A stretch of 64,000 nucleotides of DNA from the NCBI GenBank assembly GCA_965178125.1, contig OZ237767.1, positions 186,001 to 250,000 of the forward strand, given 5' to 3'. Within the stretch, counting starts at the first letter, position 1. Each line of letters starts with the position of its first letter. Under the pieces are notes generated by a model. The model worked only from the letters and a program-made list of their open reading frames with translations. It had not been told where the DNA came from and searched no databases. Below are positions 1 to 64,000 of this stretch, piece after piece. This DNA comes from Bilabrum cf. latius. Its lineage: Eukaryota. The position numbers were made by a program, and so were the translations under genes.

Positions 1-2
1 TG

Positions 3-1957
3 GCTACTCCTTTTTCATATACTGGGAAATTTGACACAAAGCTAAGCGTTTCAGGCGCGCAGAGGGGGTTCACGTACTCGGATGCTGCAGGCGCCCTGGA
101 CCTCATGGACAGTTAGCCTGGCACAGACACAGCTCCCTAGGATAAACCCAGTGAGACAATTTACCATCGCATCTTGAGCGCTCCCGTGAAATTTGTTTGC
201 GGGCCTTGCAAGGTCAGGGTTAGGGTGAGCATTCCTCGATTCGTTCAAACTCGTGCTATGTTGTTCCCATCCCCTTGCCATGAAAGCCTATCATATTGTG
301 CAGTACCTCCCCCCGTTGATGACAACCTCAATGACGACGAAGAAGAGCACGAACAAAGTGGCCACGATTCAAGTGACGCTATAGATGTAGTCAGTTCTAG
401 TAGCGATAGCAGCAGCGTCGGGCTTCAATCAGAAGAACTACAAGAATTGAATGTGAGCGATGGATCGGCTTCTGATCAGCAGGACGGCTCAATTCCAACA
501 ATCCACGAATCCTGGAGTGATCTAGACCGGCCTGCTTAGGTGGAGCACGGCCACCTTTCCAGGGATACCCAAGGCAATGACGCGCACGAAATGTGCGCAA
601 CAGCGACATTGTCGGCTGATACTGGAGGCGGCTTGGCAATGCCGGCTCATATGTCTGTAGATAGGGGGCCTCGACTGGAACCAGTTCAAGAGAGCACCTT
701 TGTTCCGGTTTCGCGGAGGCCGCCGACGTGGGCGCCCGCAACCACAAGGGTGCGCTCTCGTCCCCTGCCCCCACCACCTTCCGTCCTGCCGAGCTTCTCA
801 CTGCTGGAGCTCAAGTCGATCACCCGACAGCTTGACATGACCATGCAGCTGGCTGATCTGGTACCCGTGAGGACCATCGGGGTGGGCACGTTCGGGCGGG
901 TGAGGATGGTGCGGGACAGGAGGACGGGCAAGCTGTACGCTCTCAAGACGCTGCGGAAAGCCACGGTCGTTCGCTTGCGGCAGCAGCGCAACGTCTGCTA
1001 CGAGAAGGCGGTGCTTGCCGCCATCCGTCACCCGTTCCTAATCCAACTGCAGGCCGCTTTCCAAGACGAGGAGTGCATGTACCTGGTGCTGGAGCTGGTG
1101 CAAGGCATCTAGATGTCCAGAGTGATCGGGACAGATGAGTTTCATTCCGAATCCCAGGCTCGATTTCTCGGTGCCCAGATGCTCTGCGGGCTTGCGCACC
1201 TGCACCTCCGCCGGGTCCTATACCGCGGGCTCGAGGTAAGAGAGCAAGACTGAATCCTGTCTGCAATCGTGTGGAAAATGCCTATTATTACGCATCACTC
1301 CCTGCTCCCCCTGCCCATGCCTCCTGCCTCCTCTCCTGCTCGCAGCCAGCAAACGCAGTCATCGGACCCGATGGATATCTGAACATGCGAAACTTCATGC
1401 AGTCGAAGCCGCTTCCGGCAGGGGCAAAGACCTGGACCTTCTGTGGCAATCCGGATCGAATGCCGCCGGAGTGTTTGCTTGGCCTCGGGCACAACGAAGG
1501 CGCCGATTACTGGGCGCTCGGCGTGCTCATCTATGAGATGATCTCCGGAAAGAACCCGTTCGCATCGGACGACAGCGATCCCATGAAAGTCTCCCACAAC
1601 ATCATTTTCGAGGATGTGCTCGCTTCAAGAGGTCCGCTTCCCGCCCCACTTGCGGTATCCTCACCTGCTGCGCTGGACCTGGTGCGCGGACTGCTGCGAA
1701 AGTCCCAGTCAGACCGTCTCGGCTGCCACAGTGAGGGAGCAGTCGAGATCCTGTAGCACGAGTGGTTCTCGGCGATCGACTTCGGCAAGCTGCTCCGCAA
1801 GGAGATAGAGGCGCCCTGGGTGCCTAAGCTAGAGTCCGAGGACGATGGCGCACAAGTTTTCGAAGAGCAAGTCGTATACTCGGATGAAGAGGAGGGGGAC
1901 GAGGTAGAGTAGGAGATGTGTACTGGTGAATCCATGGAGTGGTGCAGACACTTTTGA
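3..1957 (+). CDS. AGC-family (PKA/PKG-like) kinase-domain protein, predicted pseudokinase; possibly 5'-partial; intron 1236-1345
   Basis: The frame is open from the window start (ATG at 105 is an alternative start) when TAG at 114, 138, 537, 1110, 1754 and 1910 is read through. GxGxFGxV and ALK motifs are present. A GTAAG..GCAG intron joins YRGLE|PAN. It has an AGC C-tail (HEWF..IEAPWVPKL) and ends TGA 1955-1957. A further intron near 213-303 is possible but unverified. Confidence 0.75.
1236..1345 (+). other. Spliceosomal intron (110 nt)
   Basis: GAG|GTAAGA donor, pyrimidine tract, CGCAG|CCA acceptor; same position as the intron in the paralog (RDLK|PEN). Confidence 0.85.
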
Positions 1958-2160
1958 GATTGCCTGCCTGAGTGCACTGCAGTTGCACATCGTTGACGTG
2001 GTGCTTGCGTCTTCTTGCGTGGATCTTGCTTGCACTACGATACCATGTGCGCTTCGGCAAGTGACGAGCGGAGCATGTAGTGATGAACTCGCCATGCACG
2101 CAAGGTTGCAACCGCTGTCGCACCGATTCCCATAAATTCCCATTCAATCAAAAAGTCACG

Positions 2161-5100
2161 TCAGAAGTCCTTGCACCATTTCAAATCGGTACCTGGCTGC
2201 AACCTCTCCTCCTCTTCTTCCTCCTCCTCCTCATCCGAGTAGTCATCGAAGAACTGCGTGTCGTCCTCGGACTCGAGCTTGGGCACCCAGGGCGCCTCTA
2301 TCTCCTTGCGGAGCAGCTTGCCGAAGTCGATCGCCGAGAACCACTCGTGCTACAGGATCTCAGACACGCCTGCACGGCGGCAGCCGAGACGGTCCGACAA
2401 TCGTTTCTGCAGCAGCCCGCGGACGAGCCTCACCGCACCTGGCGACTCGTCCTCCACTTCCTCGGGGAACTCCAACGTAGTGTCAGAGTTCAGAATCCGC
2501 TTGAAAATCTTAACCTGGTCTCCATCATCGACCGCGAACGGGCTGTCACCAGACAGCATCTCGTAGATGAGCACGCCGAGGGCCCAGTAATCGGCGCCCT
2601 CGTTGTGGCCCTTGGAGAGCAAGCACTCTGGGGCCAGGAAATCGGGGGTCCCGCACAGCGTCCGCGTCATGGACCCGGCCGGGACATACTTTGAAAATCC
2701 AAAATCGCATATCCGGATGTACCCCTCCTTGTCCAAGAGGAGGTTCTCGGGCTGCGGTGGATGGAAGGATGAAGGGGGAAAGCAAACCAGGGGAGCAGTG
2801 ATTGCTGCTCAGTAGAAACAAGGCAGCACAAAGAGTGAGCGCAGCGCAGAAACAGCATGCGCATAAGCAGCTGCGCAGACATAGTCGTTCATTTCCGGTC
2901 GTTTCCCTTACCTTTAGGTCCCTGTACAGGATCCTCCTCTCGTGCAGATGGGCCAGCCCGCTCAGCACGCAGGCAGCGTAGAAACGAGCGGATGCTTCCG
3001 GCAGAATCTCTTCTGTCTCTAGCAGCCCGAACAACTCACCGCCTTGCACCAGCTCCAGCACCAGGTACATGCACTCCTCGTCCTGAAATGCGGCCTGCAG
3101 CTGGATCAGGAACGGGTGGCGGATGGCGGCAAGCACCGCCTTTTCGTAGCAGACGTTGCGCTGCTGCCGCAAGCGAACGACCGTGGCTTTCCGCAGCGTC
3201 TTGAGAGCGTACAGCTTGCCCGTCCTCCTGTCTCGCACCATCCTCACCCGCCCGAACGTGCCCACCCCGATGGTCCTCACGGGCACCAGGTCAGTTCGCT
3301 TCATTTCGGTGTCTAGCTGTCGGGCGATGGATTTGAGTGCAGGCAAAGAAGAGCCCGCGTCGATGAGGATCGAATCGTCTGCGGGCTTGGACTTGCTGCC
3401 TCCTGCCCCTCCCATGGCCATGTCAAAGTCACCTCGCCTGCCACTGCCCTTGACACCGATCTCCGCCGCTCGCATGCCCCTTCTTCTGGCACTCGTCATG
3501 CCGCTCCTGTGCCTTCCAGAGTCGGGGCCTGCGGAATCCGCCGATGCTCGTTTCAGGTCCAGCTTGGGCATGCCCCCAGGCCGGCGAGATCCACTGCCGC
3601 CTGCATCGGCGCCAGCTGCTCCCGAGCCACGCGCACCTGCGTCATCGCCATCATCATGGGCATCGGAATGCAGGTCTTCTTCTTCGTCCAGCCCAGTGCC
3701 GCCCCAAGATGGACCCACGAGATCTGCGTGGGCCGGTGAGTTGCCTCGCACCGCCGCGGTGGAGTGCACGGCAACCGTGCCCAATCCCAAGGATGTCCCG
3801 CTGATGGCCGTCGCAGCCTCGTGCAGGTCATCCGACCGGGAGCCGGAGCTCACACGGGAGGACCCGGCGGCTACCTCGGTTCTCGCGACTGCATGCCTGC
3901 CTCGGATCGATCCCTGCGAAACCACCTTTGTTCTCTCATAGGGGCCTGACCCGCTCGCGTCACCGCTGACGACACTGCCGTCATTGTCCTCCATGTCACC
4001 GGACACCTCGATCCTGCTACCCCTTCCAGAATCGTCGCCCGATTTGTCGTTCGTTGCTGCCGCCAGGGCCGCAGCAAGCCCGCCCCTCTTGCCACCTTTT
4101 AGGCTCCCCCCGCTTCCCGATGACACGCGAAAGCTGTCCGCGGGGCGCAGGGACCGCGGCAGCCCCATCGCCGCCACGTCGGCTGCGTCCATCCGCCTTA
4201 GGTAGGCAGACACGGACCCCACCACCTCCATGAACTGGCTCCTCTCCAGTGCCAGTACGGTGACCGATTCGGACGCGACCTGGATCGTGTGCTCGCAGGG
4301 CGCCCGGGCGGCAAGCAGCTGCTTGTCGCCGAAATAGTCGGAAGAGGACAGCTGCCCGGCAGGGTTCGATCCCGCGCTGCCGGGATCTGCATGCATCGCG
4401 CTGGCCTCGTCCACTGGCGACAGTCCGATGGAGCTGAGCACCGCAGTGCCGTGCATCTCCATGGCCCCGTCCCTCACGATGCAGAAAGGGCACTCGATTT
4501 CTCCTTTCCTGCAGAGCACGTCTCCCTTAGTGAAGGACCTAGTCTCGACCTTGGCTGCCACTGCCTCTCTCTCCTTCTTGGTCAGGGCGGAGAACAGAGG
4601 CACGGAACGCAGCACGTTCACGGTCATGTTCCGATCCATGACGTCAGCGAGAGGGCCCAGCATCTTGTCCACGTCCTCTCGGCTCAGCCGAAGCAGCACG
4701 GCGTCGGGCTCAGCCCCGGTGCTCGACGCGCCTCCCGCTCGCGCTGCACTGCCACTGCCGCTGCTTGGCTCCACCACCACGTCCGCCGCCCTCCTGTCGT
4801 CAAGCATCAAGGCCCGCTCGCCCACGCACGACCCCGCCTGCAAGACCACGTCGGCGATCTTTCTGGCTCCGGATCCGATGTTGGTGCAGCGCACGCTGCC
4901 CTTCTTGATGAAGTACATGGAGTCTCCGTGGTCGCCCTTCTTGATGACCCGGTCACCTGCCCTGAAGGTGTGCTCGGTCACACTCAGCGCCACTCTGCCC
5001 AGCTGCTCCGCCGTCAGTTTCTGGAGGATGGACACCTGCTTGAGGGCCTCCCTGGTCTCGCCCAAGCTGCGGGCCGAGTGACGGGCGAGCACCCGGCGCA

Positions 5101-6598
5101 GAGTCGCCGCGTCCATCGAGTAGACCTTCACTCCCGACGGCCCGGCCCTGACGGTTTCCCCCCTGGGCCGGTCGTACACCAGCGCCGACTCCCCGAAGCT
5201 GTCACCGGGGCCCAGCTTCCTGGCGATGTCGCCCTCAACGGACTGCATCATCACCGTGCTGTCCACCGTTGCGTCTGCCACAGCCGCCACCGGGGTGTGG
5301 GAACCGTCGCCACCGTCAGACTCCAGCGAATCGGAGCCCGAGGAGCCGCCCGTGGGGTCGGTCAGGTCGCGAGGGGCGGCGGCAGTGCCGACATCGACAC
5401 CCGATGCGGAACGACGGCTCCCACCGGGCGTCACACTCGTCACACCAATGGCGTCTGCATGGGCTGAGGGCGTGGGCCGCATGCCGAGGATTGTGCGAAC
5501 ATCCAGCGAACCTTCGCCGACGACGATGAACCTCCCGGCGAGCGGGCCGCTCGCCTCCAACCCCCCATGCCCTGCACCAGCAGTGGACGAGCGCCGCAGC
5601 CGAGCCGGGGAGGCTGCCTGCACGCTGCCTGCCGTGCTACTTCCTTTGGAGCCCCGCCTCTGCTGCGCGTCTCCGGCTGCACCCGGGGAGGAATCCCTGC
5701 TGCCCCCACCGTGGGGGGGGATTGGCGAGGAGGCACCCCCGTCGCCGTCCCTCGACGACACAGCGCTGGGGTATGGCGTCGTTGCGAGTCCTCGGATAGA
5801 AGCCCCTGGAGACTTCAAAAATGATGGAGCTTCCGTTCCCATGGCGATGCTGCCGAGCACGGAACCGCCGCCCGCTGCTGTCGCGGAGTCCATGCCGCAG
5901 TCTGCGAGCAAAGCGCCGGGCTCGAATTCTGTGGGCTCCAGCGCGGCCACGACGTCGCTAAGTTCAGCAGGCCGAAGCGATTTAAAGAAGAAATGTTTCG
6001 TGAGAGCCGACGTCAGGGCACTTCGCTCGTCGTCCGATTTCGGGTAGTTTGGAACGCCCGCGGCCGCGTCTGGGCCACCGTGCACTCCGCTGCCGTCTCC
6101 GGTACCACCTTCTGTCGTGTCTTCCAGCGACTCATCGCCATAAATAACAACCTCCTTCGCTCGAGACGATGCGTACGATCGACCGCCCCTGGATCGACCA
6201 GAGACGGAAGCTGTGAGCCCACCACCGGACCGCCTCACCGCTCCAGAGCGGGCACCAGCCGGAGAACCCGAAGACTGCGGGCTAGCAAACCCAGACCCTG
6301 ACGGAGATACCATAACATGCCCATGGCTTTGGTGCGGGCTGGGCGCAGTCCTTCCTGGGACAGAATACTCAGGCGACCCAAGCAGCCGAGGGGAAGCCCC
6401 AGCCTATCGAAACGACACGGTTGGGCCAATCCTGCCTCCAGAACGCCTAGGCGAAGCTGCACTCATATCATGGTGAGAGGCAGCAGTGCGTAGTACTGGT
6501 TTTGGCATGCCAGCGCGTGTAGAACTCTCGCCAGTCGTAGGTAGCCGCGGGCCGCCTGGATCATTATCTCGGTTGATCCTACTATGCCGTGTTGACAT
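2161..6598 (-). CDS. cGMP-dependent protein kinase-like protein (about 3 cNMP-binding domains + AGC kinase), ~1425 aa; intron 2752-2911
   Basis: ATG at 6598, with an upstream in-frame TAA at 6617-6619. cNMP motifs (GDSFGESAL..PRGETV; GSCVGERAL..RRAADV; DYFGDKQL). Kinase motifs GVGTFGRV, ALK, YRDLK|PEN, DFG, TLCGTPDFLAPE, DYWALG. In-frame TAG at 6404 and 2350. Ends TGA 2161-2163. Confidence 0.88.
2752..2911 (-). other. Spliceosomal intron (160 nt)
   Basis: AAG|GTAAGG donor and CCGCAG|CCC acceptor restore the YRDLKPENLLL catalytic loop. Confidence 0.9.
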
Positions 6599-7004
6599 CA
6601 CGTCAAAAGGTTCTCTTTAAAGAGCGCCCAGGTCTTCAAGCAATTCCAGTTTCGCAAATTCGAGAGCGCAGCGGCTAGCTGTTGAATGCAGCGAGTATGA
6701 TTTTTAATACTTGTGCACGTTACTATGGTAAGAATGCAAAGGCTCTCAAGTCCCAGTTTACGACTCCTTTGACTCGATTATACTCCAAATTACAGTCTAT
6801 ATTGATAAACGCATATATTGTGTTACCTCTATCGCTGTGAAGGCGGCAGTTTGCTTGCTTGTGTGTTGTTTTGCAACTCAAGAACAAGTCGGCTGAACGA
6901 TGCCCCGAAAGGATGCGTCAGGAGGCTCTGGCGATCAAGATGTAAAGTAGCAGCTAAAAGCGCTAACCCTGGCTGTCCAGGGCATCTCTGAAAAGCTTGA
7001 AAGC

Positions 7005-9014
7005 ATGTCACCTCATGCTGCTAGTACTGCATCACCTGCGCGAGCCGCATCACCAGCGCGATCGGCCACCGCTGAGCACCGAGTCGTGCTTGACTCTGCC
7101 ACTGCAAAGAGCAGGCCCGCCCTGGAAACTACGGCTCTAACTAGAGTTCTATCACAGACGAGCGACTCTGGCCGCTCGATGGACGAGGAGCAGGAGCTCC
7201 TTCGACAGCTGCGACCTCAGTTCTATCCTCACACGCCAAGGGCGAGGAAAGACAAGATAGAATCGATCATCGGAGCGCGGGACGACAAGATCCAATTGGA
7301 AGGCATGGAAGGAATCTTCAATCTCTCCGGACTGCTGCTGGGCTTCGCCTTCTTCTACCTGGTCCTGCGCAACCTCAACCAGTACGGCCTCCGGTTCAAC
7401 TTGGACACGTTCTGGTGCTCTGGAGCTCCCAGGGACTTTGCGCTGGCGGCACTGTCCCTCCTGCCCGCGGGCATTCTGACATGTTGCGTGTTCCTGACGG
7501 AATACGCGTTCGTGCACGGCTACATTGGCGCCAGCGCGATGGTGGCTCTGTACGTGATCTGCAATGCACTGCACCTCGTGGTGCCATGCATCGTCTCCTA
7601 CAACACCCAGATCGCCCCCCTGGCTATGGCACTCGTGCTCCTCGCCGTCCTGATCCTCATGCTCAAAAATCACTCATACGTCGCCACCAACTTCGCCATG
7701 AGGCTGGAGACCCTCGTCCTCAAGCACGAGGAGGAGGAGGCCGAGAGGAAGGCGTCCTCTGGTTCCCTCAAGGAGCTGGCCTGCAAACAAGGGGAGGCGT
7801 CCTCTGGTTCCCTCAAGGAGCTGGCCTGCAAACAAGGGGAGGCGTCCTCTGGTTCCCTCAAGGAGCTGGCCTGCAAACAAGGGGAGGTGCAGAAGCTGGT
7901 GCCGGGAGGGCAGGAGGGGGTCCGGAATCGAAAGGGGGCAGCAAGGACCGGAGACGCTGCTGCAGGCGAGGAACAGGGCGAACAAGAGGAGGAGAGGAAG
8001 GACGGCGATGAAGGCGAAGACGAGGAAGATGGCGGTTTGAGTGGGACCGGACTAGAGTCTGACTCATCCGATAGCTCTCAGCTGGCTCCGAAGCACCTGC
8101 TCAAAGCAGCGGTGCACGCAGCCACTCTGCACACATCCTTGAAGAGGTTGCAGGGAGGCAACAGCAAGGGGCAAAGGAAAGCTCTGCTCTAGTTTCCCAA
8201 CAACGTCCGGTTCTCTCAGTTTCTATACTTTGTATTCGCTCCTACGCTGGTGTACGAGCCACTATATCCCAGGAGCGCAGGTCCGATCAGGTGGATGTAC
8301 GTCCTGCAGAAACTGGCCGAGGGAGGGCTGTGCCTGGCGGGGCAGATCTTCCTAATGGGGCAATTCATCGGGCCAGTACTGTCGAAGCTAGGTGCCGCGG
8401 ATGCAGGCGTGTTGTCTATTGCGATGGCATTCGGGAAGCTGGCCATCCCTGTGTTTGTGACGTGGCTGCTTGGCTTTTACCAGCTCTTCCACGTTCATTT
8501 GAACGTGGTGGCTGAGCTCATGCGGTTCGCGGATCGGGAGTTCTTCGGCCAATGGTGGTCGGCCACCACCCTTCGTGATTTCTGGGCCACGTGGAACCGA
8601 CCCGTGGGAGAGCTGTGCTTGCGTCACTTCTACGTTGAGCTGACTCACTTCACCAGCGCGTCGAAAGAAGCTGCCATGGTCGCGACGTTTAGCGTCAGCG
8701 CTGTGCTGCACGAGGTCATCTTTTCCGTGGCCTTCAAGACAATCCAACCTTTCTTCTTTTTGGGGATGTTGGCTCAAATTCCCCTTATTATCTTGTCGAG
8801 GGGACTCAAGGGCACGAAACGGGGCAATCTTCTCATGTGGCTCCACCTTTTCATTGGTTTCCCCGGACTCATGATCCTGTATTCAATTGACTACCACCGG
8901 GAGAGGGATAGGTTCTTCTGCATGCCTTTGAGAGAAGGGTGGGACGACGGAATCGATGGGGGTGCCGGAGCGGTCGGGGCACTGCAGCTGGCATACGCGT
9001 ACCTGACGGCATGA
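7005..9014 (+). CDS. DGAT1: MBOAT acyltransferase, DGAT1/sterol O-acyltransferase family, ~669 aa
   Basis: ORFs 7005-8192 and 8250-9014 are in the same frame, separated by one TAG (8190-8192) in 'LL*FPNNVRFSQFLYFVFAPTLVYEPLYPRS'. Motifs LKNHSY, RFADREFFGQWW, FWATWNRPV and SAVLHE (catalytic His); many TM segments; ends TGA. Confidence 0.85.
7752..7886 (+). repeat. Coding tandem repeat, 45 bp x3 (ASSGSLKELACKQGE)
   Basis: Three identical copies of GCGTCCTCTGGTTCCCTCAAGGAGCTGGCCTGCAAACAAGGGGAG. Confidence 0.95.
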
Positions 9015-9360
9015 GATACTGAGGGTCTGTGAGAGTTGTGCCTGTTGCTGCAGTTGTAGCTGTAGGAATATATATCTATTCTCCAATCTCCATCTCGGGC
9101 TACTGCCGCTACTAACCCTAACCAGGATGTGCCGAGCCAACGGATCAACAACAGAAATACCCCGCTTCGCCGTTGGGAGAAGAAACCTGCCACCTTGCTC
9201 TGCAGCCCGCCTGCTGCCCTAGTGGACAATGACTCGAGCTCGGGGGAAGGATGTAGTTCCGTGCCTCCAGCGGACCCCAAATCGTAAGGCTGTGGCCCAG
9301 CCTCCAAGGCCTCGTTGAACACAGGGTAGTTGCGGCTGTACGAATGCTCGTGTCGCCGAT

Positions 9361-9632
9361 CGCGAGAGGGACAGGTTCTTCTGCATGCCATTAAGTTAAG
9401 GGAGGGGTGGGACGACGGAAACGACGGAGAGAGTCCTAGGTTTTACTGCATGCCATTGAGGGACGGGTGGGAGGACGGGATCCGATCGATGGGGGTGCTG
9501 GGGCGGCCGGGGCACTAAAGCTGGCCTACGCGTTCCTGACAGCGTAACAGAGGCACTGCGGGCCATCTCTTGTGGATGCGGCAGCGGCACGACTCGCGCC
9601 TGTTGCTTGCAGCTACAGAAATATATTTCTAA
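9361..9632 (+). pseudogene. Two degenerate partial duplicates of the MBOAT gene 3' end and 3' flank
   Basis: 9361-9424 and 9438-9632 resemble 8898-9080 (GAGAGGGA.AGGTTCTTCTGCATGCC..GGGTGGGACGACGGAA; CTGGCCTACGCGTTCCTGACAGCGTAA; AATATAT.TCTA), with indels. Confidence 0.75.
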
Positions 9633-9766
9633 GTTAGCTAATGTTCCTTCAGATAAATAGCCGTTGGTGACGACTAAACAAACAGAATTCCCCGCAAACA
9701 TGAATGGCTCATCCAAGTTTGCGGCTGAGCAGAGTTTTACCAGCCTTGCTCAACCTGATTTAGATC

Positions 9767-23637: not shown

Positions 23638-23728
23638 CTGAGGCTCACCCAGTCCGGTGTGCGACGATCATATTGTGTGACCAGTGGCGCACGGCAGCAC
23701 TTGCAGGGATTGCTCATTCCTTCTTCAC

Positions 23729-26815: not shown

Positions 26816-26849
<34 letters not shown>

Positions 26850-28467: not shown

Positions 28468-28489
28468 TCACATATCTGATACAAACTAA

Positions 28490-54600: not shown

Positions 54601-56691
54601 GTCGTACGTCACCTGCCCAGCGTAATGCACCACGCCGAAGGGCCGCTTGCCCGCCTTGCTGCTGAGCCTGCTGGATTTCTTCCCTCCTGATTTGGTGCGC
54701 GACACGCCCGGCGTATAGTCGATGAACTCGGCTGTCTCCCCGTGCGCCTTGCAGGTCCTGGACAGGAAGTTATCGTCGCTACCGTTGGGCAAGAGAACCT
54801 CGTCGTCGAGCATCGAGAGGATACCATGCCTCTTGTGTTCAAGGAGGGCGAGCACGCCCACGTTGTCAGGGAAGGTCACGTCCGAATAGTCGATGCCTTC
54901 CTGCTCGTACACCCGCACGTCCTCTTTGAACACGTGGGCATTGAAGTGCTGCTGCAGCTTCTCGTTGCAGAAGTTGATGCACAGCTGCTCGAAGGAGTTG
55001 TGCTCGAAAATCTCAAACCCGAAGATGTCAAGCACCCCGATGGTGCGACCCGGCCCGCCCACGTCAGCCCCGTCCTTGGCCTTGAGCGACGCGTTCACGC
55101 GCCCCACGAGCCAGTCGAACATTCGCCCGTAGAGTGACTTTGCCAGCGCGTTGCGGGCATCGGCCGCGCCCTCGGGCGGCAGTGGTGACCTCGTGGCCTT
55201 GCCGCGCACCACAATCACCTTGGAGCAGACTTCGCGCTCGAGTGTTTCCGAGTCAACGAGGAGGCAAGCTGCGGCGGCTAGCAGGTCCGGCTTGGAGCCG
55301 GGTGCCACTGCAGCGTCGTCCACTTCGCCCTCCCCTTCTTGTGCCCTGCGCACCTCGAACTTGATGTTGCCCAGGTGCAGCACTGCCGCCACCACCCGGA
55401 ACAGTGCCATCTGCTCTTCTTTCACGAAATGCATGCGCTCCATTGCGTCCTGCGCATCGGTGAATTCCTCCTGGTCGTCGATCCTGGGAGCGTCAAAGCA
55501 GTCGGTGGTGGTACTGAGGTAGGCGTAGTCCTGGGGCGCAGTCAGCCTGAGTGCCTGCCTGTCAGCTTCCTGCAGTCCCCTGATGAGCTGGTAGAAAATG
55601 TGGAAAGACCTCTCTGAGGGTGCAGGGGTGGTGACCCGGGATTTCTCAAGTAGGTAGTTTGAGACCTTGCAGCCCCCGATGCGGGAGTGGCCGTCGAACT
55701 GGACTTCCATCCACTTCCCAAACCTGGAAGAATTGTTATTCCGGACGGTTTTGGCGTTTCCGAACGCCTCGAGCACCGGATTTGCGGCCAGGACGCGGTC
55801 CGCGACGCCTTCCGCCGGGGCTCCACCGCTGCCCGCGGAAGAAGAAGAAGGACCGGCACCGGCGCCTGACGCGGGGCCAGGGCGAGGTGCCGGTGCTGCA
55901 GATTTGGACGGCTCTGCCTAACCGGCGACCTCGGCCAGATACTGCAGAATCTTCTTGGTGGCTTCCGTCTTTCCCGCCCCCGATTCGCCCGAGATGATGA
56001 CGGCCTGGGATTCCCTGTCGTTGGCCAGGCCCCTGTAGGCTGCGCTGCCGATGGCGAATAGGTGCGGGGGTGCCTCGTCCCCTGGCCGCAGCGCGTGGTA
56101 CTTGTTAACCTGCGTGATTCCGTACAATCTGTCCATGCCCTCGTAGGTGTACGGATTTAGCGAGACTAGAATCGTGCCTGCGGCGACGAGTTTGAGAAGC
56201 ATCCGTGCGAGGCAGACTAGTAGCGGCGATGGCGTGCACTGTTGGGCCGGTGCGATGGGGCACCAGGCACGAAATTGTACGGTATGGTCACAACGATTTT
56301 GCAACGAACAATTCTCACCGATGTTAGTGTAAATATCTAGTCGAGCGAAGCGGAGCCTCAGGTTGTGCAGAATCATTGGCTGGTTCACCTCCTCCATCTT
56401 GACCATGTCATCATAATCAGTCGTCAGTGATGATGCAGATATAATTTGAGGGCCAAGATTATCTTTGGAGACCTTCAAGACCTCTTCGCGGTCCGTAACT
56501 AGCTCGCAAGGCGACGTATCTGGGTCACTTCGAAGCATGCCAGCGACGTACCCTTCTTTCTTATCAGGGACCCAAAACCAAGGAACTGCGAATGTATCTG
56601 CATCGCGATGCTCTGGTTCTTTCTCAGTAGCCGTAGACGAGGAAGAAGGCGTCTTGTCTAGGATTGCATCGAGCTCGGCTGCCAAGTCCAT
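39640..56691 (-). CDS. Giant myosin: N-terminal SH3-like, motor domain, IQ-like motif, long helical-repeat tail, C-terminal MyTH4; ~5636 aa; intron 56178-56318
   Basis: One 17-kb frame with at least 19 in-frame TAG (55918, 54214, 54019, 52357, 52075, 51676, 49492, 48607, 47989, 47569, 47563, 47392, 46627, 45079, 43102, 42925, 42286, 40399, 40153). Motifs [39 protein letters not shown] and [18 protein letters not shown]. Ends TGA 39640-39642. Confidence 0.88.
56178..56318 (-). other. Spliceosomal intron (141 nt, in-frame, stop-free)
   Basis: ATC G|GTGAGA..CCGCAG|GC ACG restores the myosin motif [15 protein letters not shown]. Confidence 0.85.
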
Positions 56692-56969
56692 CGGTACCTC
56701 GGATAAAGATACGCTCCCTCGCCTTGCGCGCCGCTTCTATCTAGTTCCAGATACGTCAGTGGCCATACCTGAGGGGGTGAAGCCGACCTCAATAGGGTGC
56801 TTGGCGATGCACAAGAGACAACCGCTAGGAGGCGCCGCGCCACTCGTCACATTAGATCTATTAGTATCTGTTTTGCGGAACCTCAGGAGGTGAAACACCA
56901 TTATTGATTGCGAGTTACAGCTGGACCGCCAGGATAATAAGAGCAACGCTACTTCGTTGAATTCATTGA

Positions 56970-59900
56970 ATGAGTCGTGTAGATCCCGCTAGTGGTGGTC
57001 AAGCCCTGAGCTCTGGATAGCTGGCCAAGACGCCCGCGACGGTCACTCCGGGGCGTGCAAGAACCACCCAAGCAGGCCACCCCAGTCCATCAAGAATAGG
57101 GGCAACCTCGGGAACACCCGCCGGAAAGCTTTAGGGTCGTATATTTCGAGATATTCGACAATGGCACGAGGACTATCGGCTGAAGATTCGAGCGGCAAGG
57201 CAAGATCGGAGCCTTGCCATTTCGAAGCTGCGCCCCGGAAATGCCCCACCTCCACCGGTTCGCGATGCAATGCTTGGTATGCAGGGAAAGTCTGCTCCGG
57301 ATGAGCATTGTTTTCAGTTCTTCATTGGGCCCCGCAAATCCAGGTTCTCCGCGCGGTATGCCCCGCGCTATCGTAGCCAATAGTCTGGCCTAATCACGTT
57401 CGTGGCAGAGTCCGAAGAAACGATCGACCTATGCGAGAAACTCAACGAATACATGAAAACCGCTTCACACGCGACGATTACGAAGCTTTGGCGACAGGCT
57501 CTGGATCGCACCGTGGAGACATGGCATCAGATCGAAGATGAGCGAGCAGAGTAGGCAGCCGCGGCAGCCAAATTGGTCTCGAGGGAGAGCTCATTCGAGA
57601 GTCCCGACCATGTCGCATTTGGAGCTGCCGCAGATGAGGAATTCGGGGCTCTGCCCCAGGGCGGCAACATCTTGACCAGACAGTTCTCGAGCGCCGACGG
57701 GGAAGCTGCAACGCACGGTGGTGAACACGCAGCCGATTTCGGATTGGACGGCGGTCGGTCTCTGTCCAACGGGTCTTTGGGCATGATGGATCCCGTTGGA
57801 GGTGCATCGCACGGCGGTGCGGCAGACCCCATGGCACCGGCTCCGCTTCTCCGGGGGCAGTCGTATGACTATAGGGGGGTCGGCGCGGGCGAAGGTGCAT
57901 CGCACGGCGGTGCGGGCGGGACCGGCTTGTTTGGAGACGGCGCGGGTGGCGACGGGGAGGCGCTGTTGAGAGGGCTATCGACGGACACGCACCTGGCGGC
58001 TGCAGGGGGGCGGTCTGCCACTGGTGTGTATCGGGAGATTTGGGGTCGGCTGCCGACGTCCCTGGGTAGGGAACCTTCGTCATCAGAGGTTCCCCGGAAC
58101 AGTTCCCTGGAAAGCGCCGGGTCCTCGGCGACGGCATCGAGCGGTCCCGGCGCGCCCGCGGGTCTAGTCAGCTCCTCCATGTCCAGATTGCAGTACCAGA
58201 CACCGGCTGCACTGGGAGCAGATGATGCTTCGATCGGCAGCCCAGGCCATTCCGCCCCTCTTCCCGACAGCGCCACGTACGATCGATCCAGGCGTGCATG
58301 GAAACGGGCTCAGTCCAAGCAGCTGGCCATCAAGCGCGCCAAGGAGGCCATCAAGAGGGAGCTATCCAGGCTCATGAAGTGCAGGGACGTGGCCGATGAT
58401 GACCACGTCGACGATCAGGACCCGGATGCCGAGGCGGGGGGCGGCAGCAAGCGCAAGAAGAAATCGCGGCAGAGAGCGTACGACCTCATTTCCCTGGAGA
58501 ACCCGTTTGCCTGGGAGGTGCACATGCACTTTGGGGAATCCACAGCCCTCGGCAGGCAGCTGCGAGAGAGGGCCTCTCGGCTCGGCCTGCCTCAAAGCAC
58601 CGACCCCGCCGTGGCCGAGTCAGACCCGATGCGCCCGCACGCATACCTTAGGCTTCTACTCATGTTTCCCGCCGATTTCCCCAAGGAGCCGCCCGTGGTG
58701 AGGCTGGTTGGCCCTCTCCTAGAGGAGGGCACGGGAGGGGTGCAGTTCGGGGCGTTCGTGTCTAAGCTGCTGTACGGCCCCGAGAGGAAATCGACCACCG
58801 TCGAGGACGATGTGGATGCAGAGAACGTTAAAGTCAGGGGCAGCTTCTTGCATGAATCGGGTGCCGACCCCTGGGGGCACGACGGTGGTGCCGGGGCTTC
58901 GGGCACGCCAATGACGCCCGGCGAGGAGCTTTGGGGTACAGGGGCCGGGGCCTCTGTCGCGGCCGCTTCGGCTGCCACTGCGTTTGGGTCTGGCAGGGAC
59001 GGTTCTGGCTCCGGATCCGCAGCAGGGGGTGGTGACGAGGATGGCGACAACTTGGCTGCTTTACTGGGGAGTGCTAGCAAGAAGAAGAAGAAGAAAAAGA
59101 ACAAGAAGAAGAACAGGCGCAGCGGCAGCATCGACGTCACCAAGCCGCCAGGAGGCACTGGCTCCCCCAAGCTGGCAGCATCAGGCGCGGCAGCAGGAGC
59201 TGAGGCGGGCTCCACAGCTGACCCCAAGACTCCCGTCGTGCAGGGAGACGTGAGGTCCGAGCGCCGGCAGAGAGAGAAGCTCGAGTTCGACCAGGCTATG
59301 GAGGCCTACCGCTCGTTGGAGCACGGCAGGCACGATCGGATGCTGGTGGTGCTGCTGCGAGCCCTTCGCAAGCAGCTGCTGACCACCTCTGGCGGCGGGG
59401 TGGAGCTTCCAGCTGCTAGAGTGCGGGTGGACACTGCCGCGGAGTACGACCCAGACGCTTGGGCGGCCGTTCATCGGCGGCTGATGAAGGACTGGGGCGG
59501 GTACGAGCTAAGCACGCGGGGGGACTTCAGAGACACGGTTAGGGCAGTGAGTGGCACACAGGCGAGACTCAGCGGCATGCGGTTCCCTCCCTCGTTCCAG
59601 GGCGGAGACAAGCTGATTACCGGCCCTGGTATACCCATCGAAATGGGAGGAGGAAGCAGGAGCTTGGAGCTGACCCCGCTGTCCTCTACCGGCGCGGTTG
59701 CGATCGGGACATATGCTGGTATCCTCCAGCCGAGCGCCGAGCGCGGGACGATTGTGATTCCGGATCATCTCATGCGGTCGATGCGGATCACCGACGGCGA
59801 CCGGCTGTCGATCCGCACGGTGGAGCTGCACAAAGTGAAGGGTCTCAGGCTGCGACCATCGCGCTGGGATTGGCACAAGCGGATCCCCATCCCGCAGATG

Positions 59901-62051
59901 CCCTTCCTGCGCACTGCCATGCAGGGTTTTTCGTCTCTCACTCGCGGGCAGGTGATCACTCTCCGGGTCACAGAGGCCGATTTCGAGGGAACGCCACGGT
60001 ACCAAGAAGCACTCAGGAAGGTGGGTGGTGTGGCCGAGGAGATCTTCCTGGCCGAGACGCTAGACCCCGACGAGCCCATGGTTAAGCTCTGGGACGGGTT
60101 CTTCACCAACGTCAAGGTTGACTTTCTGCCTGCTGCTGACGCGCAAGAGGCGCTGGATAAGGCCAAGCAGGAATCCTAGGAAAAGGCCGAGGCCGAGGCT
60201 GATGCGAGCGGTGCCGGTCGGGGGTCCAGAGGGCCTGCATCCGGGGCAGGTGCCGATGTGCCTCCCGGTCGTAGATCAAGCAACATGCCATGGGGCGCAG
60301 TCGGGGACGGTGATGGGGCAGGTGCGGTGGAAGTGGCGCCTAGAGCGGTGCTGCCTGTGGACAGGTTCATTGCAGGAGAGAGTGTGTCCGTCGCGGTGCA
60401 ACCAAAGGGAAGCGGGGCCATTGGGTCGCGCGCCGATGCTGCATAGTCGGGGGGTAGTGATGACGAAGATGTCGTTTTGAAGGTGTCCGTGTCTGGTGGG
60501 ATCAGTGGGCACGTGCTGCTTCGGTGCCAGTATGGCGTATCTGTAAGCGACGTGGTTGCGGCTCTTAGCCCTTTTGTGGGCGCGGTGGCAGACTGGCGCG
60601 GGATGGGTGCATCGCATGATAGTGTGCCCGACGAGGTGACTGCAGCGCTGGTGCATCAGGAGATTGGAAGCGAAGGCGCCCGGAGCCTCTGGAAAGGCTA
60701 TTTGGATACCGAGCTGGAGATGCTTTGCGGCGGCGACGGAAATGCGACGCTTCGCTCAGTGCTCGACGGATCGTCCCGCGGGTCATTGAGCTTGGAAATC
60801 GATTGGCCAGCTCCCCAGGAAGATGCAGCGAGCTCCAATGGCGGTAGCATGGTGGCACAAGACGGCGATCTGAAGCCTCTAAGAGAGTACGTGGAGGTTC
60901 TGCTCGTGGGTCTTCACGCAAGGAGGACCCGCTCCGCCGCAGGGACCAGCACGCTTGCCAGGGTGCTGCACGCGCTGAGCAGGGGAAGGGGCGAGACTCC
61001 TGTGGTTGCAGAGGCAAGGAGCGTGGATGCTGGTGCAGTGCGACCTAGCAGTGCAGTGCACGTTCCTGTGCCCCGACCCGCGCCCGTCAAGCGGAACGAC
61101 GCTCTTGAGGACTCGTCACAGTGCAAGCCGCGCGAGCACCCGGACGATGAGGTTGTCCCGAGGACGGCAGTGTACATCCGGTTGCCCACCAATGCGACTG
61201 CCGCTGACCTTTACGCAGCCATGGAGCGTACCATTGAGCCTGCCCCTGTGCCCTCCCAGCTGCGAGTGAGCAGGCACCTGGCAGACCTCCCCGGGTCCGC
61301 ATTCGAGGAGAGGGAATCGGCGGTGGCGGGTGGATCCAAGGTACAGGTGGGCGAGAGGGGCTTCCTTGTGCATGATGACCCGGCCAAACCGCTGGTGTCA
61401 TCCCTCGGTGGGTCTCATACCACTGGCGTGAGCGCAACGCATCAGACGTCTGCTTCTTTGTTCCTCAGGCAGCTGCAAGAGGAAGTGAACAAGCTGCCGG
61501 GTGTCGGATCGACGACTGCTGCAAGGCTACGGGCGGGCAGCAAGGGCATCTATGTGGTGGAGCAAGTGCCCGCGCCACTCACTGCCTCCAAGGCAAAGTC
61601 GCAGGCCATCCAGAAAGAAGAGGACACCAAGAAAGCTGTGGCACAGTGGACGTGTGAGACGTGCACGGGGGTGAACCGCGCATGGAGAGACAGCTGCTAC
61701 ATATGCCACAGCCCAAGACCGTCCCACACCCAGCCAGGTGACACAGCGGATGTCGTGGTCGAACGAATGGCGAGGGTTCGGAGGGAGCACAGCAGACACG
61801 ACCCTTTGAGCATGGTACGCGGGCGCTCATCAAGCAGAAATGGCTCTGCAAGTTCCTCCGCAAGCCAGCAGCAGCAGTAGTAGGACTGTGTCATAACGGT
61901 GGCAGTGGGTGCGGAACGCATGGCACTAGACAGCCACGAGGATGTGCCATGGTTGCGATGGGCACTGGGGGGCGGTCATCTGCTGCCTGAGGAGCTGATG
62001 CAGCTTGAGGCAGCTTGGGTTACCAAGAATGCCAATCTCGCTGCAATTTAA
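56970..62051 (+). CDS. Ubiquitin-system fusion protein: UBE2Q-like UBC fold lacking the catalytic Cys, UFD1 (UT3) domain, RanBP2/NZF zinc finger; ~1693 aa
   Basis: ATG 56970 directly after an in-frame TGA; single frame through TAG to TAA 62049-62051. UBC-like LENPFAWEV..MFPADFPKEPPVVRLVGP. UFD1-like GGDKL..TYAGILQPSAERGTIVIPDHLM..LRTAMQGFSSLTRGQVI. Zinc finger WTCETCTGVNRAWRDSCYICHSPRP. Confidence 0.78.
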
Positions 62052-62469
62052 GAAAAGCTTGCAAGGGTGTCTTTCCACCTAAGTCAGCTAGGTCAAGCTG
62101 TCAGTTGTTATCCTGCAATGAGATTGAGTCAAGGAGGAAAGTAAGTACAATCAAATGTTCATTTGCAAAGTCCTGCCACGGATGCCGTCGCTCAAGATGG
62201 CTGGTCTGGATCGCCTGAATCGAAATGAGCTCAGATGGTTCGCTACGTAGCCTACATAGATCTACCCCTGATGAACGGTTCTGCGTTTCGCTGGCCACGT
62301 CTGGCGAGACTAGAGTCTTGCGAAGGGCACAGTGACCGGTAGTATAGCAAAAGACACGATCAAAAATCAATGGGCAATTTCCTAAAATGTACATGTTGGC
62401 GCAAGCGGATACTGTCCTGTGGACTGTCCTGGAGGTCAGCACAGATGAGCTTCACAGAATGTTCATGAA

Positions 62470-64000
62470 TCATGAGGTCGGCCGCTCCGTTCTCATCTCC
62501 ATCCGGCTTATGTTGATGTACACCACGATGCCATCTTCTCTGACTTTTTCTTCCCACCCTGCTGGCAAGGGATCACCCCCGCTATCGTCCCCAGAAGCGG
62601 AGCCCTGTCTGGCTCCCACTGTCGGCCGATCGTACTGCACACGGCTGTTGGGGCCTTCGTACACGACCCGACCAGGGCCAATAAGACTTGCCGTCCATCC
62701 CTCGGGAAGGTCCTGCGCCTCCGGTAAAATCACATGACCTGCATGCATGGACACTTGCCCAGGAACCCACCTTTGGTCCCGAGGGCCGCTCCACTTCCAT
62801 TCGCGACAGGCACTGGACACTGCGTCCGAGCCGCTTCCCCCCTCAGTCTTGGCCAAAGGTCCGGAACGATGCCCGAAGCAAGCGAGGGTTCTTGCTAGCG
62901 ATGACATGCAGCTGCAAACAGTTTCGATCGCGTCGCCGCCTGAAAGCAGCTCCCGACGCAGGTGCCTATCCCACAGCGAGGCCTCCCCCTCCACCAGCGG
63001 ACGCACGCGGCCAAGCACGCCGTCCACAGCCCAGCCGTACATAGCACGCGTGCCAGCGCTCGGTGGCCGCAGTACGGCCATGGGCCCCGCTTGCACCACA
63101 GCCGCCTCGGCTGCCGCCTTGCCCTGCAGTACTCCTGCACCGATGGCACAATCCAACACACCGCCTGCGAATCCGTGAGTCCCGATAGTCCCAAATGACA
63201 TGCTCTTAGGGCATGCTACTAGCTCGCTGCGGTTCAAAGCTCCGATAGTAGACATGTCCTTATCTGGTTTTTCGGATAGGCTACTTGCTGCCTGCAAAAC
63301 GGCAGACTCCATCATTGAATCGGTAGCACAAGAAGCCGGCAAAGTGCTTGCCTCCGCTGTTGCGATATCGATGCCTGGGGGAACATCGGCACCAGCTCCG
63401 CTTGCTGGACCGCCTTCCGCTTGGGTCTGGCTAGAACCGGTGGTGTCTCCCTCTCCGCGATCCTCAGACTCGGGACCAACGAGAGCAGCTCTCGGTACGG
63501 CCTGCATGGCGTGCTCTGCCCGACTCAGCTGCACTATCTGCTGCTGGACCCACTGCGGCCAGTTTGCCTCCCCACCATCGCGAACGACACGCACAGCAGA
63601 GTGCGAGCCTGGTCCTTCGTGCCTGCTTGACTTTTCTGCAATTCTAGCTGGATCCGTGTCTGCTTCAGATACATGGCCTTCTTCAATGTGCGTGGGAGCA
63701 CCTGCAATGCTGTCCGCCGTGGTACCAGGGAGAGTTAGCGGTCCATAGAGAGCTCCAAGTAGCGCCTGCACCGCTTCTTCAGGAGGAAGCCGGTGCTCGG
63801 GCTTGGGCTGTAGCAGGCCTCGCAGCACTGCCTCAAGAGCGGATGGGCAGCCAGCACTAGCTGGGAGCTTGGGAATCTCCACCCCACTCTGGAGCTCGTG
63901 CTGCGCTTGTGCGTCACCCCCACGTGCCTTGTCCACGTGCTGACTTGGCTTCACCACGGAGTCTGGCAGAGTTACGAGGTTTGCATCTGATGCATTGGCC
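62470..64000 (-). CDS. 5'-partial gene: probable protein-kinase C-lobe end followed by two WW-like domains
   Basis: PSALEAVLRGLLQPKPEHRLPPEEAV resembles kinase subdomain XI; LPEGWTASLIGPGRVVY and LPAGWEEKVREDGIVVYIN are WW-like; ends TGA 62470-62472. Confidence 0.65.
   Translation of the reverse strand, partial: ANASDANLVTLPDSVVKPSQHVDKARGGDAQAQHELQSGVEIPKLPASAGCPSALEAVLRGLLQPKPEHRLPPEEAVQALLGALYGPLTLPGTTADSIAGAPTHIEEGHVSEADTDPARIAEKSSRHEGPGSHSAVRVVRDGGEANWPQWVQQQIVQLSRAEHAMQAVPRAALVGPESEDRGEGDTTGSSQTQAEGGPASGAGADVPPGIDIATAEASTLPASCATDSMMESAVLQAASSLSEKPDKDMSTIGALNRSELVACPKSMSFGTIGTHGFAGGVLDCAIGAGVLQGKAAAEAAVVQAGPMAVLRPPSAGTRAMYGWAVDGVLGRVRPLVEGEASLWDRHLRRELLSGGDAIETVCSCMSSLARTLACFGHRSGPLAKTEGGSGSDAVSSACREWKWSGPRDQRWVPGQVSMHAGHVILPEAQDLPEGWTASLIGPGRVVYEGPNSRVQYDRPTVGARQGSASGDDSGGDPLPAGWEEKVREDGIVVYINISRMEMRTERPTS

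Follow-up and report, generated by a model that had tools for sequence, protein, structure and literature searches.

Is UAG read as an amino acid in the nuclear genome represented by this locus, and if so, as which one? To our knowledge, a change in the meaning of UAG nearly always goes along with one in UAA, and the exceptions in which UAG alone is reassigned are test cases for an eRF1 that tells UAG from UAA and for the capture of stop codons. The original prediction was that UAG is a sense codon for glutamine throughout the 64-kb stretch of DNA analysed here (the window), with UAA and UGA remaining stops. Very probably this is indeed the nuclear code of the organism: UAG specifies Gln, and UAA and UGA are the only stop codons.

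The window is 60% GC and intron-poor, with spliceosomal introns present and large multi-domain genes, as listed below.

3-1957, plus strand: kinB, kinase-like gene (Pfam Pkinase, 8e-23); ends in TGA
2161-6616, minus strand: cGMP-dependent protein kinase (PKG)-like gene (Pfam cNMP_binding, 9.5e-30; Pkinase, 3.4e-29); ends in TGA
6897-9014, plus strand: DGAT1-like MBOAT acyltransferase (Pfam MBOAT, 3e-17; PDB DGAT1, 9e-44); ends in TGA
9767-19381, minus strand: Reeler/cytochrome b561 protein (Pfam Reeler and Cytochrom_B561), 3,164 aa, secreted or membrane
19799-23637, plus strand: g857, family not recognised (from a spliced contig of run X5 and reading frames); ends in TGA
23681-27976, plus strand: MUS81-type ERCC4 nuclease (Pfam ERCC4; PDB human MUS81); ends in TGA, 19 TAGs
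28490-33307, minus strand: parA, multi-pass membrane protein, family not recognised, paralogue of parB; ends in TGA, 11 TAGs
33810-39326, plus strand: parB, paralogue of parA; ends in TGA, 18 TAGs
39640-57042, minus strand: giant myosin (Pfam Myosin_head, 8e-203; MyTH4, 9e-16); ends in TGA
56970-62051, plus strand: 1,693-aa protein (weak matches to UFD1_N1 and to the RanBP2 zinc finger); ends in TAA, 8 TAGs
62470-63999, minus strand: 509-aa open frame leaving the window (stop-to-stop frame); ends in TGA, no TAG

Exon 1 of kinB extends to 1235 and is followed by an intron (GTAAGA..CAG, 1236-1345) and by exon 2 (1346-1957); the coding TAGs lie at 114, 138, 537, 1110, 1754 and 1910. The gene is a diverged paralogue of the kinase end of the PKG-like gene, in which YRGLE replaces YRDLK and DFG is missing, and to judge from its sequence it likely encodes a pseudokinase. 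The PKG-like gene itself runs through exon 1 down to 2912, an intron (GTAAGG..CAG, 2911-2752) and exon 2 (2751-2161), with coding TAGs at 6406 and 2352. The DGAT1-like gene has coding TAGs at 6948 and 8190 and contains a perfect coding repeat of three 45-bp units (7750-7887). The Reeler/b561 gene starts at an ATG at 19261, stops at a TAA (9769-9767) and has an intron in its 5' UTR (19381-19275, GTAAGG..CAG); the protein has a Reeler domain, about 19 internal repeats of ~105 aa each and a cytochrome b561 domain, and TAGs are found at 19153, 18109, 16021, 15397, 14362, 13171, 13147, 11980, 11911 and 9889. The gene termed g857, for which the Pfam search returned no match, consists of exon 1 (to 22078), an intron (GTGAGT..CAG, 22079-22191) and exon 2 (22192-23637), with coding TAGs at 20399, 20753, 21194, 21602 and 22870 and a further TAG, 22085, within the intron. 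In parB, four of the 18 TAGs fall inside identical 45-bp repeat units (35970-36153). The giant myosin is laid out as a motor, ~26 tail repeats of ~105 aa and a MyTH4 domain; its frame holds 21 TAGs, one of which (56991) precedes the first ATG.

When TAG is treated as sense, stop-to-stop frames of 5800, 3203, 1838, 1693, 1605, 1431, 1356, 857 and 705 aa open up, whereas the longest frame in the window under the standard code is 1285 aa. Treating TAA as sense has no effect on the 15 longest frames of the window, and treating TGA as sense yields a longest frame of only 1298 aa. Thus, frames merge into proteins of 5,800 and 3,200 aa only when TAG is a sense codon. The TAG-containing frames match the Pfam families Myosin_head, MyTH4, Reeler, Cytochrom_B561, ERCC4, MBOAT, cNMP_binding and Pkinase, and the TAGs are scattered along whole genes, conserved domains included. 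Ten candidate coding frames together with one TAG-free frame contain 99 in-frame TAGs in 19,424 codons; within these codons there is no internal TAA or TGA, and TAA (3) and TGA (8) occur as last codons only. Out of frame, the same stretches contain 281 TAG, 123 TAA and 742 TGA triplets (sums of per-gene counts). TAG therefore makes up about one quarter of the out-of-frame stops, yet accounts for 99 of 99 internal ones, a bias that is not the product of decay. Refinement of the gene models (introns and second exons) brought the number of coding TAGs to 102, with four added in second exons (2352, 1754, 1910 and 22870). TAG represents ~0.5% of codons and ~12% of all Gln-type codons. The TAG counts given earlier, at least 19 for the myosin, 10 for the b561 protein and ~18 for MUS81, compare with 21, 10 and 19 found here, and the prediction that UAG is sense while UAA and UGA terminate was borne out in the window and in the metagenome contig L001 (below).

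Could the TAGs nevertheless be untranslated, as parts of pseudogenes, through RNA editing or splicing, or as sequencing errors? The stretch was found in four DNA runs, and one of these (X4) shows no difference from the window over 8000-27999. Contigs of another run, X5, are gene-sized and vary in depth by gene (~87, 32, 3 and 35) compared with a flat 46 in X4. They join 19274 to 19382 and 22078 to 22192, both exactly at GT..AG boundaries; a contig of 9,720 nt spans 9626-19274 with no differences and carries the first of these joints. The database record is silent on the type of X5 and an automatic guess reads 'probably DNA'; its splice joints, together with a depth that varies between genes, suggest that X5 is RNA-derived, and, on this reading, that the TAG-bearing genes are expressed and spliced. 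In the X5 pieces listed, all 15 covered coding TAGs (of 35 coding TAGs in 8000-27999) are unchanged, and TAG 8190 of the DGAT1-like gene is likewise unchanged in contigs of both X5 and X6. Since the spliced contigs keep the TAGs that they cover, neither editing nor splicing takes these TAGs out. An untranslated origin gains something from the single intronic TAG among the 99 (22085) and from kinB, which resembles a decaying or pseudo-kinase. The absence of TAA and TGA among the 99 internal stops, the frames intact over up to 5,800 codons and the same pattern in an independent metagenome contig (L001, below) speak against it. The genes are conserved and free of TAA or TGA damage, and are therefore not pseudogenes. 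That the TAGs escape translation can practically be discounted.

UAG might also be a dual codon that specifies Gln within genes and terminates translation towards the 3' end of certain mRNAs. After refinement, nine of the 11 window genes end in TGA and two in TAA, exactly as given in the original prediction, in frames that were defined with TAG as sense and in which any terminating TAG would thus be read through and hidden. A TAG lies four codons ahead of the TGA of parB, and context-dependent codes are known (10.1101/2022.04.12.488043). Examples are Condylostoma, karyorelict ciliates and, with UAA, Blastocrithidia. Against such dual use, all 13 gene ends examined (11 in the window and two of two in L001, both TGA) are TGA or TAA, and MUS81 reaches its C-terminus at matching places, after sense residues, in the window, in L001 and in P0247. 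The distribution of TAGs along whole genes is also at odds with termination near 3' ends, and a context-dependent UAG appears very improbable.

The identity of the inserted residue is addressed by L001, a metagenome contig from a relative that carries orthologues of MUS81 and of the 3' end of the giant myosin, with 10 + 9 = 19 in-frame TAGs in these two genes. The same usage at different positions indicates that the code change predates the split of the two lineages. Aligned positions with TAG in one sequence and a sense codon in the other were accepted when at least eight of 14 flanking residues were identical, which left 12 pairs. The partner is CAG or CAA in five, Arg in two and Val, Ser, Met, His and Gly in one each. 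The rate of Gln partners is thus 0.42 for TAG; Gln itself has a Gln partner at a rate of 0.44, and the remaining residue types in the table at 0-0.06 (binomial tail for 5 of 12, p = 2e-5); in the remaining seven pairs the partner is not Gln. In L001, CAG stands opposite window TAG 27284 in MUS81, and Gln stands opposite window TAGs 40401 and 40155 in the myosin. By these alignments, TAG is now exchanged with CAG/CAA in the way that synonymous codons are.

Distant homologues point the same way. In an exhaustive search, the column of TAG 27284 is Gln in 150 of the 150 best homologues, and in the alignment with human MUS81 from the PDB this position pairs with the Q of REQKF. For Pfam profiles, TAG was read in turn as Q, A, S, L, E, K, Y, W, N and R. 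Gln scored best in ERCC4 (45.6, next 43.2), MyTH4 (67.7, next 66.4) and MBOAT (67.0, next 66.5), whereas Reeler favoured Tyr (54.6 against 51.1 for Gln) and the kinase profile placed Glu and Ser 0.4-0.5 bits above Gln; summed over the five domains, the scores are 318.2 for Gln, 313.2 for Glu, 312.9 for Ser, 310.1 for Ala and 306.6 for Leu. Local HMMs over 17 columns gave Gln +18.0 bits, with the next residue at +7.5, Ser at +6.8, Ala and Glu at +5.6 each and Leu at -8.5; with the two MUS81 columns removed, the sum is +8.2 for Gln against +7.1 for Ser and does not decide. Only four Gln runs occur in 18.9 k residues, and the longest leads directly into TAG TAG: the 1,693-aa protein has CAG CAG CAG TAG TAG at 61869-61883, read QQQQXX.

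Several columns favour a different residue, and a UAG that is sense but specifies Ser, Ala, Glu, Leu or another amino acid, or is ambiguous, has to be considered. The column of myosin TAG 55920 is Ser in 81 of 106 homologues, that of TAG 40401 is Ala in 51 and Ser in 19 of 75 (70 of 75 together), and two tail-repeat columns at TAGs are Asn in 90 of 164 and Leu in 115 of 191. For Ser, Leu and Ala, tRNA recognition by the synthetase does not depend on the anticodon, which counts in favour of such a reading. Nuclear codes with UAG=Ser or UAG=Leu exist in Scotinosphaera, the rhizarian exLh and some ciliates, as described in the text available from PMC11687900. These points are outweighed by the invariant Gln of the MUS81 column, by the L001 partners (Gln 5/12, Ser 1/12; Leu, Ala and Glu 0/12), by the summed HMM and Pfam scores, and by the occurrence of CAG in L001 both at the Ala/Ser column and at the MyTH4 column. 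A residue other than Gln is accordingly quite improbable; TAG is most likely glutamine, as had been predicted, judging from these comparisons.

A plausible route to this code would be a tRNA-Gln(CUA), which a single mutation separates from tRNA-Gln(CUG) and which decodes UAG but not UAA, combined with an eRF1 in which recognition of UAG is lost or weakened and that of UAA and UGA kept. Within the 64-kb window there are no tRNA genes and no eRF1 gene. Alternatively, UAG might be read as Gln with no tRNA(CUA) of its own, by a standard tRNA-Gln(CUG/UUG) whose structure or modification has changed, with eRF1 avoiding UAG. UGA offers a precedent, the tRNA-Trp(CCA) of Blastocrithidia, which has a 4-bp anticodon stem and reads UGA according to the part of PMC13092985 available, and Panek et al., in the portion of PMC5304391 consulted, list the tRNAs as unknown for most variant nuclear codes. 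A near-cognate reader of the UUG type should put UAA at risk too, and UAA never occurs in frame; furthermore, tRNA-Gln(CUA) is a documented solution in Tetrahymena and the hexamitins (PMC5304391, same portion). Decoding by an altered standard tRNA therefore seems unlikely, and a tRNA-Gln(CUA) is the predicted decoder.

Two single-gene signals bear on the lineage. In a tree of myosin motors (57 rows), the window sequence falls into a group with Cafeteria roenbergensis and two environmental sequences (SH-aLRT 99), and among the ranked MUS81 homologues the nearest named entry is a Cafeteria cluster (rank 5 of 150, 37% identity); Cafeteria is thus the nearest named relative in both genes, at 37-43% identity. 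The organism would be a heterotrophic stramenopile related to Cafeteria but far from it. As the nearest named relative is a stramenopile, the change probably arose independently of that in Iotanema, and the earlier proposal of an origin separate from fornicates and ciliates fits this Cafeteria-side placement, which comes from two genes only. The locus probably adds a new lineage, a stramenopile, to the few eukaryotes that separate UAG from UAA. A literature search found no stramenopile case in print. We would give an even chance to the fuller claim that this is the first change of a nuclear code in stramenopiles, an independent UAG=Gln with UAA and UGA as stops, in a GC-rich clade of heterotrophic flagellates distant from Cafeteria and shared by at least two species.

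Most UAG-only cases covered by the accessible parts of PMC5304391 and PMC11687900 come from transcriptomes or ciliates. Here the reassignment is found in the normal genomic sequence of a protist with high GC and few introns, and a diverged relative shows it too, so that one can study how old the change is and how TAG and CAG/CAA replace one another, as well as the tRNA and eRF1. If the stramenopile placement is true, genomic DNA of the clade would allow the predicted tRNA-Gln(CUA) and eRF1 change to be read directly. Annotation of this genome or of related metagenome bins with the standard code would break ~0.5% of codons, lower completeness estimates and leave genes like that of the 5,800-aa myosin in over 20 fragments; code 15 is advised.

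The codon table equals NCBI code 15, the 'Blepharisma' code, and is a known kind of code in a new lineage. Codes in which UAA and UAG both specify Gln (NCBI table 6) occur in many ciliates, Hexamita, ulvophytes, oxymonads and Amoeboaphelidium. They share with the window the reassignment of a stop to Gln, probably through an anticodon-mutated tRNA-Gln, but differ in UAA, which in the window is absent from the interior of 19,424 codons and ends two genes. Rhizarian exLh (UAG=Leu) and Scotinosphaera (UAG=Ser) likewise reassign UAG alone and keep UAA as a stop; the difference is the residue, Leu and Ser reaching -8.5 and +6.8 bits here against +18.0 for Gln. Ciliates tend to be AT-rich or to have gene-sized chromosomes, whereas the window carries many genes on 64 kb, at 60% GC and with introns of the spliceosomal type; its myosin and its MUS81 fall with Cafeteria and environmental sequences, the former in a tree that contains no ciliate rows and the latter among matches without names. 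UAG-only reassignment to Gln is already known from Iotanema, Protocruzia and two phyllopharyngean ciliate lineages. In the parts of McGowan et al. (2024, PMC11687900) available, Protocruzia tuzeti and these two phyllopharyngean lineages are assigned UAG=Gln and, like the window, retain UAA as a stop, and other phyllopharyngeans are assigned UAG=Leu. The closest counterpart is the fornicate Iotanema spirale (Panek et al. 2017, PMC5304391, in the portion available), in which UAG is Gln and UAA and UGA are stops. Its table is the same, with UAA kept, and so are the predicted tRNA-Gln(CUA) and UAG-sparing eRF1, the latter carrying a T32G change in the GTS motif in Iotanema. Iotanema is an anaerobic metamonad represented by a transcriptome, whereas the code described here is written in 60% GC genomic DNA with large multi-domain genes.

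The 64-kb window, with a G+C content of 55-68% along its length, is very probably read with UAG as a sense codon for glutamine and with UAA and UGA as the stop codons. No tRNA genes or Rfam families were found within it. The genes that carry the argument are as follows.

Genes of the window (coordinates, strand, identity and basis of assignment)
3-1957, plus: truncated paralogue of the kinase-like gene (Pfam)
2161-6616, minus: cGMP-dependent kinase-like gene (Pfam)
6897-9014, plus: DGAT1-like MBOAT (Pfam; PDB DGAT1 match, 9e-44)
9767-19261, minus: Reeler and cytochrome b561 protein (Pfam)
19799-23637, plus: g857, of unknown family
23681-27976, plus: MUS81-type ERCC4 nuclease (Pfam)
28490-33307, minus: parA, multi-pass membrane protein
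33810-39326, plus: parB, paralogue of parA
39640-57042, minus: myosin (Pfam Myosin_head, E 8e-203, and MyTH4)
In addition, a protein whose Pfam matches, to UFD1 and the RanBP2 finger, are weak

Under the standard code the longest stop-to-stop frame has 1,285 amino acids; with TAG as sense, frames of 5,800, 3,203, 1,838, 1,693, 1,605, 1,431, 1,356, 857 and 705 amino acids are obtained. Treating TAA as sense left the 15 longest frames unchanged and treating TGA as sense gave a maximum of 1,298 amino acids. Since neither control gives comparable lengthening, the frame fusion is specific to TAG. The candidate coding frames contain 99 in-frame TAGs in 19,424 codons, and TAA (3) and TGA (8) occur solely as last codons. 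For the remaining two frames of this DNA, per-gene counts summed by hand give 281 TAG, 123 TAA and 742 TGA. Gene decay as the source of internal stops would predict that TAG makes up about one quarter of them, and was rejected on the finding of 99 TAGs and no internal TAA or TGA; the same numbers confirm the original prediction that UAG is sense and UAA and UGA are stops. A TAG-as-sense frame of 438 amino acids at 62685-63998 (plus strand) contains nine TAGs and matches no Pfam family. It is antisense to a TAG-free frame (62470-63999, minus strand), is most likely non-coding and was excluded from every count.

Seven public sequencing runs, none of them recorded as RNA, contain part of the MUS81 stretch, and four of them (X4 to X7) were compared with positions 8000-27999. 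X4, a DNA run of even depth (~46), showed no differences across this region. X5 consists of gene-sized contigs whose depth varies by gene (~87, 32, 3 and 35). One of 9,720 nt contains the entire b561 gene (9626-19274) without differences, followed by a 107-nt skip with CT..AC ends, that is, GT..AG on the strand of the gene; this intron lies within the 5' UTR. A second contig has a 113-nt skip with GT..AG ends (22078 to 22192). These two X5 contigs are spliced transcripts, although the run is not recorded as RNA and an automated guess describes it as 'probably DNA'. Of the 35 coding TAGs in the stretch, 15 fall within the X5 pieces listed, all unchanged, and the sole difference among these pieces is a C>T at 22552. 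X6 and X7 cover three and two additional TAG sites, likewise unchanged. Edited or spliced-out TAGs had been named as an observation that would speak against the reassignment; with 15 of 15 coding TAGs retained in X5, editing and splicing out are excluded for these 15 sites only.

Gene models were refined using splice joints in public contigs together with frame analysis. TAG 22085 falls inside a GTGAGT..AG intron, and in the myosin frame TAG 56991 lies upstream of the first ATG. Four more TAGs come from second exons, 2352 in the kinase gene, 1754 and 1910 in its paralogue and 22870 in g857, and the refined models contain 102 coding TAGs. Gene ends are TGA in nine cases and TAA in two, identical to those first claimed, and the per-gene counts obtained here (21 TAGs in the myosin, 10 in the b561 protein and 19 in MUS81) agree with the original prediction as well.

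A related organism bears on the identity of the amino acid. When 1.84 billion representatives were searched exhaustively for MUS81 with HMMER, two much nearer proteins came up, one with 56% and one with 72% identity; JGI metagenomes are the source of both. A metagenome contig scan recovered the contig of the 72% protein (L001, 4,625 nt); the contig of P0247, a protein also compared at the MUS81 C-terminus, was absent among the loci returned. L001 bears two partial genes in convergent orientation, the 3' portion of MUS81 and the myosin orthologue's 3' end. In-frame TAGs number 10 in one frame and 9 in the other, internal TAA and TGA are absent, both frames end in TGA, and reading TAG as sense lengthens them from 371 and 241 amino acids (standard code) to 790 and 701. 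L001 thus represents a second organism with the same code. Ten further MUS81 loci (L002-L011, 41% identity) keep long frames under the standard code and are therefore uninformative on UAG, and an alignment scan of genome contigs and viral contigs with MUS81 gave no matches.

The window and L001 share no TAG position. In the orthologue alignments (284/620 and 458/664 residues identical), sites were kept if at least 8 of 14 flanking residues were identical. At the 12 sites with TAG in one species the partner is CAG or CAA in five, R in two, and V, S, M, H and G in one each. The three best-conserved contexts (10, 12 and 13 of 14) all have Q, including a site with A or S in distant homologues. The rate of Q partners is 0.42 for TAG, 0.44 for Q itself and 0-0.06 for the other residue types tabulated; with a Q frequency of 3.1% as background, the binomial tail is 2e-5. 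Among single columns, that of TAG 27284 in MUS81 is the strongest: it has Q in 150 of the 150 best matches and also in human MUS81. Together with the five Q partners at the 12 sites compared with L001, this column supports the assignment to glutamine that had been proposed.

Other distant homologues gave mixed results. In the myosin motor, 81 of 106 homologues have S opposite TAG 55920, and the column of TAG 54216 is variable. Of the TAG columns in the tail repeats, one has mostly N (90 of 164), one mostly L (115 of 191), and the rest are variable. At one column of the MyTH4 region 51 of 75 homologues have A and 19 have S, while at another Q is present in 37 of 74. Pfam bit scores were compared with TAG translated as each of ten residues.

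Pfam bit scores by residue assigned to TAG
ERCC4: Q 45.6; E 43.2, A 41.6, S 41.5, L 40.6
MyTH4: Q 67.7; next best 66.4
MBOAT: Q 67.0; next best 66.5
Reeler: Q 51.1; Y 54.6
Pkinase: Q 86.8; E 87.3, S 87.2
Sum over the five domains: Q 318.2; E 313.2, K 312.9, S 312.9

An alignment of the Reeler TAG to a conserved Q is unsupported; Y scores best there. With local HMMs built from homologues only, in which each TAG in turn was replaced by every one of the 20 residues, Q is best over 17 columns (+18.0 bits, followed by N at +7.5 and S at +6.8). Without the two MUS81 columns the values are +8.2 for Q versus +7.1 for S, too close to decide between them.

Comparisons within the window add little. The TAGs of parA and parB lie in variable parts and face G, Q, S, I, I, V and L, and the TAG columns of the b561 internal repeats are variable (S, T and D commonest; ~19 rows). 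Positions directly beside TAG show no Q enrichment (8 of 198). Q runs are rare, with only four in 18.9 k residues, and the codons of the longest are CAG CAG CAG TAG TAG, a smaller hint of Gln. Gln-type codons comprise 557 CAG, 164 CAA and 99 TAG (TAG ~12%). TAG is denser in genes of lower GC3 (MUS81, 1.3%) than in strongly biased genes (myosin, 0.36%), and is therefore compatible with a non-preferred synonymous codon.

Several features of the genes themselves may be recorded. In L001, MUS81 is followed directly by the convergent myosin 3' end (L001 2105-2256); in the window parA and parB (~11 kb, 28490-39326) lie in between. Their proteins combine blocks of ~100 identical residues with strongly diverged parts, which suggests a recent insertion or duplication with gene conversion. 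The myosin has ~5,800 amino acids, with ~26 copies of a ~105-residue helical tail repeat ahead of MyTH4; near 56200-56350 its motor N-terminus is interrupted by what looks like an in-frame intron starting GTGAG. The Reeler/b561 protein has ~19 tandem repeats of ~105 residues, a beta-rich domain with no Pfam match. A protein search with the DGAT1-like sequence gave three matches, dominated by low-complexity words. The kinase gene and its partial paralogue are convergent, with an intron at the equivalent place in both; the conserved segment ...EILXHEWF... holds a TAG that is common to the two copies (2352 and 1754). Judged by its motifs (YRGLE instead of YRDLK, no DFG), the paralogue is likely a pseudokinase or decaying copy. 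Perfect 45-bp tandem repeats, 100% identical, occur within coding sequence at 7750-7887 (3.1 copies) and 35970-36153 (4.1 copies), the latter with an in-frame TAG in every unit. Genes are tightly packed: MBOAT and b561 are convergent, with ~115 nt between the ends of their transcript-like contigs (9511-9626), and the g857 stop lies ~90 nt upstream of the MUS81 start codon (23637-23729).

Two myosin searches found no close relative in the protein collection, the best motor identity being 48%. In a maximum-likelihood tree of 57 myosin motor domains, the window motor forms a group (SH-aLRT 99) with Cafeteria roenbergensis and a pair of unnamed sequences, nested in a wider set of the tree's other stramenopile rows, one chytrid row and many unnamed rows. 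The myosin tail repeat recurs in other long myosins, those of C. roenbergensis and Thecamonas trahens and numerous environmental ones without a name. Among the best 150 MUS81 matches, the first nameable one is a cluster with C. roenbergensis MUS81 (rank 5, 37% identity). These two genes point to a stramenopile that may be distantly related to bicosoecids, a placement that depends on which sequences bear names, and the protein clusters looked up yielded few.

As argued by Panek et al. 2017 (PMC5304391), reading UAG while sparing UAA requires anticodon CUA, which is one mutation from tRNA-Gln(CUG); CUA-anticodon tRNAs are documented in Tetrahymena and hexamitins. eRF1 must also lose UAG recognition, and Iotanema has T32G in its GTS motif (PMC5304391). 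By extension from that work, the organism of the window would have a tRNA-Gln with anticodon CUA that decodes UAG and spares UAA, and its eRF1 would lack UAG recognition. The literature searched yielded no nuclear code change in stramenopiles, bicosoecids or heterotrophic flagellates; its coverage is incomplete and the sequencing runs date from 2025, so that a description may exist elsewhere. In the available part of the Incisomonas genome paper (PMC12614181) the terms genetic code, stop codon, TAG and UAG do not occur, and no connection of that paper with the window is claimed. Reassignment of UAG only is recorded to Gln in Iotanema spirale, Protocruzia tuzeti and two phyllopharyngean lineages, to Leu in a rhizarian and other phyllopharyngeans, and to Ser in Scotinosphaera (PMC11687900). 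Since UAG-only reassignment to Gln is among these, the code as such is not new; what is new here is the lineage, the occurrence in two diverged species and the genomic DNA to hand.
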